The notes: generated from the letters alone by a model not told the origin. A DNA stretch of 56,110 nucleotides, filler included, from Ionaspis alba (GCA_964255285.1; 5 parts of 5 records of this genome joined end to end with filler, not necessarily neighbours in it), one strand, 5' to 3'. Positions 15,524 through 19,297 are shown, numbered from the whole stretch's first letter. Translations and numbers: made by a program.

Positions 15524-15970
15524 GTTGAGTGAAGATGAGCTCTCTAAAATCTAGAGCAGGTGGAATGTGGAAACTGTTGCTGAGGATCGAAAGCCAGAAT
15601 CAAAAGGCAGAATCAAGGATGAAGCTCGCTGGATAGAGAGGAAAGATGACGAGTTTTTATGCTTGAGAATATAAGCTAGTGTTAAGGAAGATTGACAACA
15701 CAGCGACAACTTTGACTAATATCCACGTAGAAAGTAGTGTTAATTGAAGTCATCGAATCTTTGAACATTTAAGTGTAGACATATCACTACGAAGTTTTTT
15801 TCTATGTAGAATTAGAGACAGGTTATTGTGTTGATAGGAAGTCTGTTAACACAATAAAGCGGATGGTATATCGACTCAAAATGGTATAGCGCAATAAAGA
15901 CGAAATAGCATACCCACAATATGTCCTATCCCTTACTACACAAAGTTGCCGTCATCTATATTCAGCGGTC

Positions 15971-16495
15971 ATGGAGTCTCCAAGTCCTACTAAACTAGGA
16001 AACCCCTTCGAGTACATGCAAATGGCTCTCTCATTTGCAAAGAAGTCGCCACCAAAGCCGACCAATTTCCGCGTTGGAGCTCTCCTCGTGGACGAGAAGG
16101 ACAACCATATCCTATCGACTGGCTATACCCTTGAGCTTCCAGGAAACACTCACGCTGAGCAATGCTGCCTGATGAAGTTTGCCGCCTCATATGGGAAGTC
16201 TGAAGATGAAGTTGCAGATCTGTTGCCCGCTTCCACTGTGATCTATACCACCATGGAGCCGTGCGGAATGAGGCTGAGTGGTAACCTTCCATGCGTGGAC
16301 AGAATCCTTAACGCCAGAAACGGAGCCAATGGCGGAATCAAAGCGGTCTATGTTGGTGTCCAAGAGCCTGAGAAATTTGTTGGCCAGAACACTGGGAAAG
16401 CGAAGCTGGAGGGTGCCGGTATTAGATGCGTACATGTCGCAGGCCTTGAAGATCAGATACTCAAAGTCGCAACTGCAGGCCATGAGGCCGATTGA
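15971..16495 (+). CDS. RIB2: Zn-dependent cytidine-deaminase-family protein, stand-alone DRAP deaminase-like (riboflavin biosynthesis)
   Basis: FRVGALL; ELPGNTHAEQCC; YTTMEPC..RLSGNLPC resemble the yeast Rib2 deaminase domain. Confidence 0.8.
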   Translation: MESPSPTKLGNPFEYMQMALSFAKKSPPKPTNFRVGALLVDEKDNHILSTGYTLELPGNTHAEQCCLMKFAASYGKSEDEVADLLPASTVIYTTMEPCGMRLSGNLPCVDRILNARNGANGGIKAVYVGVQEPEKFVGQNTGKAKLEGAGIRCVHVAGLEDQILKVATAGHEAD

Positions 16496-16753
16496 TCCCC
16501 TCACATTGATGTTTCCTCGATCGATAGGCTCGCACTAAACAGAACAGCATCTCGGTGCTGCCATTTCTCAATTCCATCTTGATTGGGTTTCGAGGATCTG
16601 CATGTGACTTCGCGGTTCGGACGCAACAGTCAAAAAGGAAGTGCGTCATGACCTCGATGACGAAAATGCGATTCGGTGCTCGGGTTACATACCTTATTAC
16701 ATGGACATTTCCACCACAACTCAATCACATCAATCACTCCGATCATAAGCCCA

Positions 16754-17726
16754 ATGCGTCAACCTGTCACCTTGGCTATCAATAGACTTGTCAGAACATC
16801 AATAAACACACAACGACCTACCATCGCCAAAGTCCAACCACTTCACCAATTTCGCACCATGGCTTCATCTACAGGCGCCAATATCGAGAATACCAACATT
16901 AAGACCGCTCCCGGTGTCACTCTCGATGACGACCAGAAGACTCTTGTCGGCTGTGTCCTAGACGTCAGTATCGACCTCACCTAACTAATCGACACCAGAA
17001 ATAACATATTCGATAGCTCTTCGCTGGTCGCCCATCCTTGAAAAAGCTCCGGCTCTGGGCCGACGACGCCGTCTTTGAAGACCCCATCACCAAGGCCGAA
17101 GGACGCAAGCAGTACGAGCCTCAATGGGTCCGCTGCATCTCCCCATCACAAGTTTTATCAAGGTCACTAACAGTCCTGTAGTACGGACTCCAAGCCGCCT
17201 TCTCTGAAATCGAGCGTCTCCACCACGAAGTCACGGACGGAGGGAATCCCATCGGCATGAACCTAAAGACCCGCTACGTAGTCAAGGGCATCGGCAAAGA
17301 GCAGACCATCGACAGTAAGATCATGATCTTCTACGACAAAGCGACAGGCAAGATCACAAAGGTGCAGGATAAGTGGGATGGCCAGCTTCCAGATAGCTCT
17401 TTCAAGAATGTGAGTATTGAACAGCTCTTTAGTCCGTGGTGGTGGGTGCATTATGGGGAAGGTTGGGCGTGGTGGATGTGGAGCTTCACGTGGGATATGA
17501 GGTGGTGGCAGGTGGGTGGAGTCGTTTGCTTGAACTTACCTGCCACCTGTGAGGGGATGTTTGATTGGGTTCTTTCATTGTGTCACTGCGGATCATTTTG
17601 ATGAAAGATCCGGCTGCTGACAAGTGTCATTTCTAGGCCTTCCGCAACCTCAACTCCGTCACTGTTCCTCATATGATCAATGTCCCCAAGAACGACGAGG
17701 AGGATGCAAAGCTAGGCAATCAGTAA
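16754..17726 (+). CDS. SnoaL/NTF2-like protein; exons 16754 (or 16859)-16963, 17017-17127, 17182-17409 (alt 17511), 17637-17726
   Basis: Spliced product VLDLFAGRPSLKKLRLWADDAVFEDPITKAEGRKQYEPQWYGL...GKITKVQDKW; the DAVFEDP motif suggests the SnoaL-like fold. Confidence 0.8.
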
Positions 17727-17968
17727 ACGGCCGGCATGTTATGATGACATCTACTTGTAACAATAGTCAAAGAGGAGCACGCAGGCAATCCATGAACTCA
17801 AGCCGTTAACCATTCTTTCGGACAACCGTGCTCGCCCCCGCTGCTTATATCTTCCTGTCCACCGGCTCTTCAGAACCACACGTAGACCCCTTCCCAGTAA
17901 ATCTCCTATCAACGTGATAAATGCCCTCCTGCTCAGTCTTTCTCCTTCACTCTCTCTGATAGAATCCC

Positions 17969-18658
17969 TTAGTAGACCATCATACCTATTGCACCCGATA
18001 CAACACCTAAGACCGCTACAGTCCCTACATTGACCCTCTTCCCCGCCCCACTCTGCCTTCCCGCTCCCGCGGCCACTCCCGCACCCTGTCCGTAATCCAC
18101 TCTGCCATGACAGAACTTGCCAACAGGGCAACAAGCAATGCTCCCTCCATCATCGAACGCACAATTCTGCGTACTCAGGCATGCCCAGGAAGGATATCCG
18201 ATCTTGGCGCAGGAGTAATGCGTATCGGGGATTGCGGGGAAGAACGTAGATGTTGGAGGGTACAAGCCCTGGGAGCTCGGAGGCACATCGACCGGGATAA
18301 TGGTCATGATTCCGGTTGATGGGGAGGATGGAGGTGTGTAGGTGTATGGGCTTTGGTCGGAGGGAATGGGGTAGGGGAAACCGGCGGTTTGGGGGGACCA
18401 GGTGGAGCTGGAGAAGGAGGACGAGATAGAGGATGGTGGTGGTTGTGGTTGAGGAGGTGGTGTGACACTTGGTGCTGGCGAGGAGGGTGCGCTGCCAGGG
18501 GATTGGGGGTTGATTTGAGGATTGTTGTTGCCGGAGTTCGGGGAGAAGAGGTAGAGGGCTGGGGAGTAGTTGACGTAGGCGGTTTGTTGGTCGGCTAAGA
18601 GAAGGGTTGGGAGGAGGAGGGTGATCATGACGGAGAGTATAGGGATTGCGAACAACAT
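17969..18658 (-). CDS. Secreted, probably GPI-anchored Ser/Pro-rich protein with a Cys-rich module
   Basis: Signal peptide; YSCAKIG...ACLSTQNCAFD...IACCPVGKFCHG; SGAG followed by hydrophobic tail. Confidence 0.75.
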   Translation of the reverse strand: MLFAIPILSVMITLLLPTLLLADQQTAYVNYSPALYLFSPNSGNNNPQINPQSPGSAPSSPAPSVTPPPQPQPPPSSISSSFSSSTWSPQTAGFPYPIPSDQSPYTYTPPSSPSTGIMTIIPVDVPPSSQGLYPPTSTFFPAIPDTHYSCAKIGYPSWACLSTQNCAFDDGGSIACCPVGKFCHGRVDYGQGAGVAAGAGRQSGAGKRVNVGTVAVLGVVSGAIGMMVY

Positions 18659-19297
18659 GCTTGGAAAGTTTGGAACTGTGTCTGCGGATGGACGGGGAGA
18701 CTTCAGTCTTAGAGAAGGTAGGAGAATACAGGGACAAAGTTATTACAGAATGGAAGAATGGAGGAAAATTTGAACGCGCGGAGGACTTCATATACATAAT
18801 GATTCTGAATGAATGTCAAACTGTGCCAGTTGTTCGTGCATGAGGAAAGATCTAGAAATTAGAGGAATACATGTCTTTCTCGGTATGCAGACAGTCCTGA
18901 TAGTGATGAGACATTATAGCTCGTTGATTGTTTGATGCACTTCTCTTGCGGGCAAACATGATGCGAGTGTAATTTGTGAAATATTGGGAATGGTAGTATA
19001 GCGTAGCAAGTAAGTGAGAGTAATGCTAAAGAATCACAATCCTCTGCCGATATATCTGAAGGCAGTTGAGACAACATCGTCTGGAGGCGACAAAGTTGCT
19101 TCAGGTGATATTACTACTCACGGAATTGGAATATCTAACAATGCAGAAGCTGGTGGATTTATGACTGGCTGATCGCGGGGCTGGTGGTCCGAGCGCGTGC
19201 GCGTCGCGGCTTACAGTTGCCAGAGAGAAGGGCAGAACGTTGGCTCTTCAAAAATTGTACATAGCGTCAGTTTGGGAGTGGCTTCGGTGAACATGCT

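Follow-up and report, generated by a model that had tools for sequence, protein, structure and literature searches.

Which of two 5' splice sites serves the last intron of a small gene of Ionaspis alba, and does a hairpin that covers the second of them bear on the choice? The gene lies in a window of 56,110 nucleotides (nt; the whole stretch of DNA analysed, filler included; GCA_964255285.1, five parts joined end to end), and a sequence-only reading had taken the hairpin for an RNA-structure splicing switch. Our comparison with relatives argues that the two sites probably form a conserved alternative pair with a donor-occluding hairpin: two competing donors would toggle a Trp-rich segment in or out of the protein, and the stem would lower or gate use of the second. 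The features that enter the argument are listed here; P0252 and P0249 are complementary DNA (cDNA)-like open reading frames (ORFs) of relatives, described below.

16859..16963, + strand: exon 1, ATG at 16859, 35 codons; matches P0252 residues 34-68 (24/35 identical), contiguous with exon 2
16964..17016, + strand: intron 1, 53 nt, GTCAGT...TAG; junction confirmed by the contiguous cDNA-like ORFs P0252 and P0249
17017..17127, + strand: exon 2, 37 codons; matches P0252 residues 69-105 (33/37 identical)
17128..17181, + strand: intron 2, 54 nt, GTCCGC...TAG
17182..17409, + strand: exon 3 core, 76 codons, in both isoforms; matches P0252 residues 106-181 (70/76 identical)
17410..17415, + strand: donor 1, GTGAGT, following AAT; strong; the same letters are codons Val77-Ser78 of the long form
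17410..17511, + strand: alternative region of 34 Trp-rich codons (VSIEQLFSPWWWVHYGEGWAWWMWSFTWDMRWWQ), intron via donor 1 and exon via donor 2
17504..17517, + strand: hairpin 5' arm GGTGGCAGGTGGGT, positions -8 to +6 of donor 2
17512..17517, + strand: donor 2, GTGGGT, following CAG; weak; predicted unpaired probability 0.0
17518..17533, + strand: hairpin loop, 16 nt, with a small internal 4-base-pair (bp) stem in the minimum free energy (MFE) fold
17534..17547, + strand: hairpin 3' arm ACTTACCTGCCACC, the 'U1-like' intronic complement of donor 2; core CCTGCCACC
17617..17621, + strand: putative branch site CTGAC from a motif scan (consensus CTRAY), 20 nt from the intron end, serving both donors
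17634..17636, + strand: acceptor TAG, common to both donors; exon-4 homology begins at 17637 in all relatives
17637..17726, + strand: exon 4, 29 codons plus TAA at 17724-17726; matches P0252 residues 182-210 (24/29 identical)

Direct reading reproduced exactly the layout first proposed. The last intron measures 227 nt from donor 1, against 53 and 54 nt for the other two, and two phase-0 donors (17410 and 17512), both conserved as donors in relatives, precede one acceptor (17636). The short gene model proposed at the same time matches the cDNA-like ORFs of relatives. Measured from donor 2 the intron is 125 nt. Both donors are in phase 0 relative to exon 3 and are spaced by 102 nt (34 codons), within an exon-3 frame that is open from 17182 to 17601 (stop at 17599-17601). 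The predicted products are 177 amino acids (aa) long via donor 1 and 211 aa via donor 2.

Relatives were collected in two ways. A protein search with the exon-3 read-through yielded 358 relatives at E <=0.001 among 359 candidates, and a metagenome scan yielded 80 loci, of which 77, together with the window, offered anchors to either side of the region; the other three, L040, L045 and L079, are truncated or lack exon 4 and were left out. Reduced to distinct sequences, the anchored set numbers 57: 40 are long forms, whose DNA contains the Trp-rich region, 16 are short forms, which lack it, and one class (the three loci L050, L051 and L066) has neither intron nor Trp-rich segment. In this last class residue 76 joins exon 4 directly, as though the donor-1 intron had been lost precisely. 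A tree from a quick search on a short alignment (71 rows, 141 columns) placed short forms inside long-form clades several times; the Trp-rich segment has thus been lost repeatedly.

Donor 1 is, on the comparative evidence, a real donor and not merely codons. It reads GT[AG]AGT in 30 of the 40 distinct long-form relatives, compared with about 8% expected from codon use: the hexamers are GTAAGT in 18, GTGAGT in 12, GTAAGC in 5 and others in 5, while elsewhere in the same genes Val is encoded by GTA or GTG in 33% of cases (GTA 7.6%) and Ser by AGT in 25%. Since the rows are related, this excess carries no formal probability, and it is large all the same. Val77-Ser78 (GTG AGT) is invariant in 21 aligned proteins. 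All 16 short forms have a 53-76 nt intron that starts exactly at the donor-1 position and ends at the same acceptor, beginning with GTAAGT (8), GTGAGT (7) or GTATGT (1), so that donor 1 is the sole donor of the homologous intron there.

The donor-1 junction was also found in cDNA-like ORFs of three relatives, taken from sources with non-splicing callers whose other entries are intron read-throughs; from their contiguity we infer that these ORFs are cDNA. P0252, on a 1011-nt contig, is identical to the four exons of the window at 151 of 177 positions, with junctions at the exon borders of the sequence-only reading. P0249, which is Teloschistaceae-like and comes from 10 contigs (longest 1836 nt), carries the donor-1 junction and is identical to the Xanthoria protein P0003 at 166 of 178 positions; the genome of P0003 holds the Trp-rich ORF that is absent from P0249. 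P0230 (16 contigs, longest 1121 nt) also has the donor-1 junction and matches the long-form locus L072 at 171 of 177 positions. The short form appears to be the default product. Constitutive production of the long form, with donor 2 real and the GTGAGT at 17410 mere Val-Ser codons as in the NCBI models, would account for 17 annotated long-form proteins and for the coding constraint on the segment, but the donor-1 hexamers depart widely from codon use elsewhere in these genes, the short-form relatives splice exactly there, and the Trp-rich segment is missing from P0230 (compared with L072) and from P0249 (compared with P0003). Donor 2 is, besides, weak and fully paired in the predicted ensemble. 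We regard this explanation as hardly credible.

The region between the donors behaves as protein-coding sequence, which the sequence-only reading had overlooked. The 34-codon ORF is stop-free in 35 of the 40 distinct long-form sequences, and the 21 aligned proteins keep the segment with W87, W88, Y91, W100, S101, W104 and W109 invariant. Over 66 pairs from 12 diverse lineages, the mean proportion of synonymous differences (pS) in the segment was 0.74, which is saturated, and that of nonsynonymous differences (pN) 0.30 (pN/pS 0.41); the exon-3 core gave pS 0.73 and pN 0.21 for the same pairs. Within Lecanoromycetes the segment's pN was 0.04-0.14. This substitution pattern indicates that 17410-17511 is a conserved coding sequence under protein-level selection.

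The coding stretch ends at donor 2. An in-frame GT stands at the homologous place in 35 of the 40 distinct long-form relatives, and protein-like conservation stops there. Position -1 is G in all 35, whichever of Q, R, M, L or E the codon specifies, and G also occupies +3 in 33 and +5 in 34, so that the G|GTGNG signal holds in 33-35 of 35. The consensus GT[AG]AGT occurs in none of the 35; GTGCGT (12), GTGGGT (6), GTGAGA (6) and others are found instead. Donor 2 is therefore conserved and yet kept weak, and the two donors make a pair in the same phase, with one acceptor and with both members conserved as donor signals. The two-donor layout is, judging by these sequences, ancient and common to Lecanoromycetes and Dothideomycetes.

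L010, L012 and L023 have no donor-2 GT, and L025 and L027 are dubious. The clade of L010, L012-L014, L023 and L025 lost the donor (CAG|GGAGGT) and is 97% identical in exon 3 to P0121 of Alectoria sarmentosa. Within it, L010 and L012 retain an unbroken Trp-rich ORF, and 1-2 stops interrupt that of L023 and L025; decay in two of the four distinct sequences is what would be expected if donor 2 had been needed. Another pair shows reciprocal decay: L038 and L043 are sister rows on the tree. In L038 donor 1 is destroyed (TTAAGT) and the acceptor AG is replaced by AA, the Trp-rich ORF being intact; in L043 donor 1 is intact (GTAAGT) and the Trp-rich ORF contains three stops. These could be paralogues, species that fixed opposite isoforms, or a case with one pseudogene.

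Constant use of donor 1, with 17410-17636 as one long intron, has to be weighed against these patterns. On this view inertia or some other cause would have preserved the Trp-rich ORF, donor 2 and the stem as intronic sequence; in one variant the stem would silence a cryptic donor, or compact the 227-nt intron so that donor 1 can reach the branch site. All cDNA-like ORFs found carry the donor-1 junction, the donor-2 junction occurs, among the proteins examined, in gene predictions only, several annotations use donor 1, and among the 40 long forms the ORF has stops in 5 and donor 2 is lost in 3. An intron, however, would not leave 34 codons free of stops in 35 of 40 sequences, nor keep pN far below a saturated pS, and protein-like conservation would not break off at an in-frame GT whose -1 position is G in 35 of 35. 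The decay of the ORF in two of the four distinct sequences that lost donor 2 (L023 and L025) does not fit either. We consider a constitutive short form unlikely.

Intron retention, which is the commonest type of alternative splicing in fungi, offers another way to translate the segment. The unspliced last intron would be read to the stop at 17599-17601, giving an alternative C-terminus, and the hairpin, by blocking donor 2 or slowing splicing, would favour retention. The frame open from 17182 to 17601 allows this, L010 and L012 keep the Trp-rich ORF without donor 2, and in some relatives (with gaps of 18-33 residues), as also in P0245 and P0246, the intron past donor 2 is open in frame as far as exon 4. 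Conservation nevertheless stops exactly at donor 2, the tails beyond it are unrelated between lineages, and the donor features at -1, +3 and +5, needless for retention, are conserved. Retention strikes us as quite unlikely to be the explanation.

From one lichen genome to another, public annotations of this gene disagree. Annotated proteins of 209-218 aa (from Xanthoria sp., Villophora, Caloplaca, Lobaria, Elsinoe fawcettii, Sphaceloma and others) align through 17410-17511 and then jump to exon 4, whereas annotations using donor 1 include those of Xanthoria parietina, Letharia, Lasallia and Aureobasidium pullulans. Near-identical genes are treated differently: P0136 of Xanthoria parietina is short and P0003 of Xanthoria sp. 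long, at 99% identity over the aligned part. In Paraphaeosphaeria minitans both models are annotated. The split of public models between 177 aa and 212 aa thus means that gene sets of lichen fungi mis-state one isoform or the other. In P0248, an NCBI model from Umbilicaria vellea, the region between the donors is translated in another frame, which suggests a mis-modelled or frame-shifted copy.

We then considered the hairpin over donor 2. GGTGGCAGGTGGGT (17504-17517) pairs with ACTTACCTGCCACC (17534-17547) over 14 bp, 12 Watson-Crick and 2 G-U, around a 16-nt loop, as originally described. The MFE and centroid folds of the 227-nt intron both contain the hairpin (z-score -3.21; 0/200 shuffles fold as well), and a stem of the window's score over the donor-2 GT was matched by 2 of 1000 dinucleotide shuffles of the downstream intron (ungapped). 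In the ensemble of 17182-17726 the unpaired probability was 0.0 for donor 2 (-3 to +6) and 0.6 for donor 1. If <=2 mismatches are allowed, the 56-kb window contains the 14-mer of the arm three times (0.29 expected), and two of these copies are the arms themselves. The predicted stability is -27.4 kcal/mol at 37 C. A second inverted repeat lies in the last intron (17568-17578 / 17601-17611, 11 nt, 91% complementary), and a GGATC...GATCC hairpin (17590-17611) stands directly upstream of the branch site, whose CTGAC region is partly mostly paired in the ensemble.

Several other identities for the element were tried. The sequence-only reading had seen no thiamine pyrophosphate (TPP) aptamer, and an Rfam search of 16700-17900 at E <=10 agreed: no TPP match (RF00059) was returned, only Prion_pknot, a match due to TGG repeats whose 15.6 bits fall below the gathering score of 39. 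Rfam searches at E <=1 gave no match in the stem-bearing relatives L001, L019, L022, L044 and L046. With no TPP aptamer found in 16700-17900 or in these five relatives, TPP riboswitch-controlled splicing was set aside. An intron-hosted small nucleolar or microRNA-like RNA was ruled out, as no family matched and one arm consists of exon plus donor; the same composition of the 5' arm ties the hairpin to the splice site. A miniature inverted-repeat transposable element or other repeat was likewise ruled out, there being no other good copy of the arm in the window and two local inverted repeats only. The stem is predicted in silico to be still folded at 80 C; simple thermal switching is therefore unlikely, and an RNA thermometer was ruled out.

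In relatives, the stem was scored as an ungapped stem over the donor-2 GT with a score >=10.5 and a shuffle P <=0.02. Eleven of the 35 distinct donor-2 sequences passed, from about five lineages: the window, L001, L004, L006, L017, L019, L020, L026 and L022, and the distant pair L044 and L046. The same test passed none of 56 donor-1 sites and none of 25 distinct intron-2 donors. Loops in the stem-bearing relatives range from 4 to 17 nt and are conserved in neither length nor sequence. The arm core CCTGCCACC is identical at 9 of 9 positions in the window, L001, L019, L020 and L022, which represent five lineages, while the remaining intron of these five is 0.38-0.69 identical versus 0.36-0.56 for shuffles. 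In L044 and L046 the exon codon is GAG, not CAG, and the arm reads CCTCCCA, not CCTGCCA, so that a C-G pair at -3 has become G-C; L046 has also changed on both sides at -7, -8 and -9. Among read-through peptides the arm motif, in any of three frames, was present in 11 of 94 versus 3 of 94 reversed controls. In L001, L006 and L017 the sequence CTGATGAG, which recalls a hammerhead core motif, lies directly 3' of the hairpin arm; no Rfam match was found in L001 at E <=1, and the resemblance is probably chance.

The stem might also be a neutral by-product of a local inverted duplication at the junction, made by template switching more than once, with no role in splicing. Such an origin would suit a 3' arm whose reverse complement nearly copies the junction (12/14), the patchy distribution over 11 of 35 sequences, two stem clades that differ across the whole arm, and a pair count that shows no double-sided change in the main clade. 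Yet the 9-nt core of the main clade is unchanged in five lineages in which the loop (4-17 nt) and the remaining intron are randomised and synonymous sites saturated, and no comparable stem exists at 81 control donors. We judge a neutral duplication very unlikely.

Several results weigh against the preferred reading of a donor pair gated by a hairpin. As many as 24 of the 35 donor-2 sequences lack a strong stem, Teloschistaceae-like relatives among them; since these stemless relatives still assemble the short-form transcript, the stem is not needed for donor-1 dominance. The genomes of Xanthoria parietina, Cladosporium and Aureobasidium pullulans contain the Trp-rich ORF and have no strong stem. 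On an alignment fitted to a covariance model, 88.2% of cells were paired with 0 double-sided changes, and the paired share was equalled by 83 of 500 column shuffles (slid controls gave 34-58%). The zero arises because, in L044 and L046, MAFFT and the model misplaced the 3' arm by four columns. Only with the arm of each of these two sequences set by its own fold do compensatory changes emerge, and they separate just two clades, so an independent origin of the stem could mimic covariation. On covariation among orthologues, which the sequence-only reading had named as a check, the fold-anchored table leans towards the structure and the model-fitted count shows no double-sided change. L022 keeps a 15-bp stem despite one stop in its Trp-rich ORF. 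As for the long junction, the Trp-rich segment runs straight into exon 4 in 17 proteins, every one of them an NCBI gene prediction, as against the short junction, seen in the cDNA-like ORFs of three relatives. A search for the donor-2 junction with the P0003 Trp-rich segment plus exon 4 as query gave 47 matches at E <=1e-5, among which no non-NCBI donor-2 junction was found; the non-NCBI full-coverage ones examined were read-throughs or short forms (8 were read by eye, and three half-coverage matches fall outside that reading).

We propose the following scheme for the donor pair. At the strong distal donor (17410), splicing would remove 227 nt and give the 177-aa protein; at the weak proximal donor (17512), it would remove 125 nt, add 34 codons and give a 211-aa protein with the Trp-rich segment. 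The long form would be made in small amounts or under certain conditions, with protein-level selection still acting on it. In the window and about four other lineages a hairpin of very high stability is predicted to enclose the weak donor from -8 to +6, and the donor's partner, 16 nt downstream in the intron, reads like the 5' end of U1 small nuclear RNA. Most likely, the hairpin competes with U1 for donor 2, and the long form is thereby lowered or gated. Donor 2 might be usable only before the 3' arm, 30 nt downstream, has been transcribed, or after unwinding by a helicase or a protein. The hairpin may, in addition, bring donor 1 effectively closer to the branch site. As a proposal of an RNA-structure splicing switch, the sequence-only reading is supported in part, as to the conserved donors and the conserved stem, absent from control donors; the word 'switch' is not supported, and the stem is predicted to stay folded even at 80 C. 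Actual use of donor 2, a repressive effect of the stem and any regulation are what we infer from this anatomy and its conservation.

The arrangement can be set beside known systems. In budding yeast, stable intronic hairpins can conceal splice signals or draw donor and branch point together; these cases are artificial constructs or long constitutive introns, not conserved donor pairs that yield two proteins. The fungal TPP riboswitch regulates expression via upstream open reading frames, not through two protein isoforms. At MAPT exon 10, access of U1 is reportedly limited, the isoform ratio is said to be set by donor strength and stem stability, and both products are said to be in frame; the stem there is reportedly short and marginally stable and governs the skipping of a vertebrate cassette exon. 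Unlike MAPT exon 10, the present stem has 14 bp and -27 kcal/mol, would bear on a choice between two donors of one fungal intron and is known from sequence comparison. The MAPT (tau) stem-loop resembles it in that the exon-intron junction of the donor pairs with the intron just downstream (PMC9236610). Terminal stem-loop 2 of SMN2 exon 7 is similarly an inhibitory local RNA structure that sequesters a weak 5' splice site; SMN2 is a human disease gene with exon skipping, reported from mutagenesis, where the evidence here is comparative (PMC1802598). With the fungal TPP riboswitch of the Neurospora crassa NMT1 type, the locus shares a nuclear intron, two donors and pairing to a donor region, which in the riboswitch decides the choice (PMC3597705). 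That riboswitch needs a TPP aptamer, and none was found in 16700-17900 or in the five stem-bearing relatives searched.

Of the properties common to MAPT and SMN2, the predicted stem holds the donor junction and pairs with nearby intron, and the structure exceeds chance and is conserved, with double-sided changes only between two clades in the fold-anchored table. To our knowledge, the TPP riboswitch is the sole established RNA-structure control of donor choice in fungi, and conserved protein-diversifying alternative splicing across fungal classes has rarely been documented. Our literature search returned nothing on this gene and no cross-class conserved case of protein-diversifying splicing for it. 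The locus is a compact case that joins a strong/weak donor pair, a selected 34-codon segment and a conserved donor-masking stem, and among its natural variants some have the stem, some lack it, and others lack donor 2 or the segment.

A bolder extension is possible, though doubtful. The locus may be an ancient bistable splice module that predates the split of Lecanoromycetes and Dothideomycetes, in which a strong and a weak donor toggle a possibly membrane- or lipid-binding Trp-rich helix on an NTF2-like protein; a U1 look-alike clamp on the weak donor would have been added in several lichen-forming lineages, so that long-form output would follow the speed of transcription, or a helicase or RNA-binding protein responsive to the wet-dry or symbiotic state of the lichen, and lineages would have resolved repeatedly to short-only or long-leaning states. 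If true, the module would be a ligand-free RNA-structure splicing switch in fungi.

The protein itself is, according to a structural model, a small NTF2-like (SnoaL-type fold) protein. Exon 2 has weak DUF2358 and SnoaL_2 matches below cutoff: for SnoaL_2 (PF12680), exon 2 scored 16.1 bits and P0252 22.9 bits against a gathering cutoff of 27, and a Pfam search of P0003 gave no SnoaL_2 match, while a PF12680 label was precomputed on some relatives. An AlphaFold2 model of P0003 had a predicted local distance difference test score (pLDDT) of 80-94 over the core, and this core matches limonene epoxide hydrolase, ketosteroid isomerase-like and PhzA/B chains (E ~1e-5, target template modelling score 0.54-0.78). 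The original SnoaL-like label is thus upheld by fold and not by the Pfam score. The Trp-rich segment is modelled as a helix with pLDDT ~50; it is probably helical and precedes the common C-terminal tail. Because of this low pLDDT we make no functional claim for the segment, and a membrane or lipid anchor is a guess.

Upstream of the gene, 15890-16495 (+ strand) encodes a cytidine-deaminase-type protein (Inv-AAD PF18785, E 1.8e-58; dCMP_cyt_deam_1, E 7e-16). Two Teloschistaceae NCBI models of 343 aa, P0239 and P0240 (PF00383), fuse a deaminase domain to this NTF2-like gene; they are probably merged gene models, and because of them the neighbourhood seems conserved. Downstream, 17969-18739 (- strand) is a 256-aa Ser/Pro-rich open frame without a Pfam match. 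Contigs from a DNA-type run include low-depth pieces identical to the window and a diverged relative that departs from the window after 17519, and another DNA-type run contains a source-like contig.

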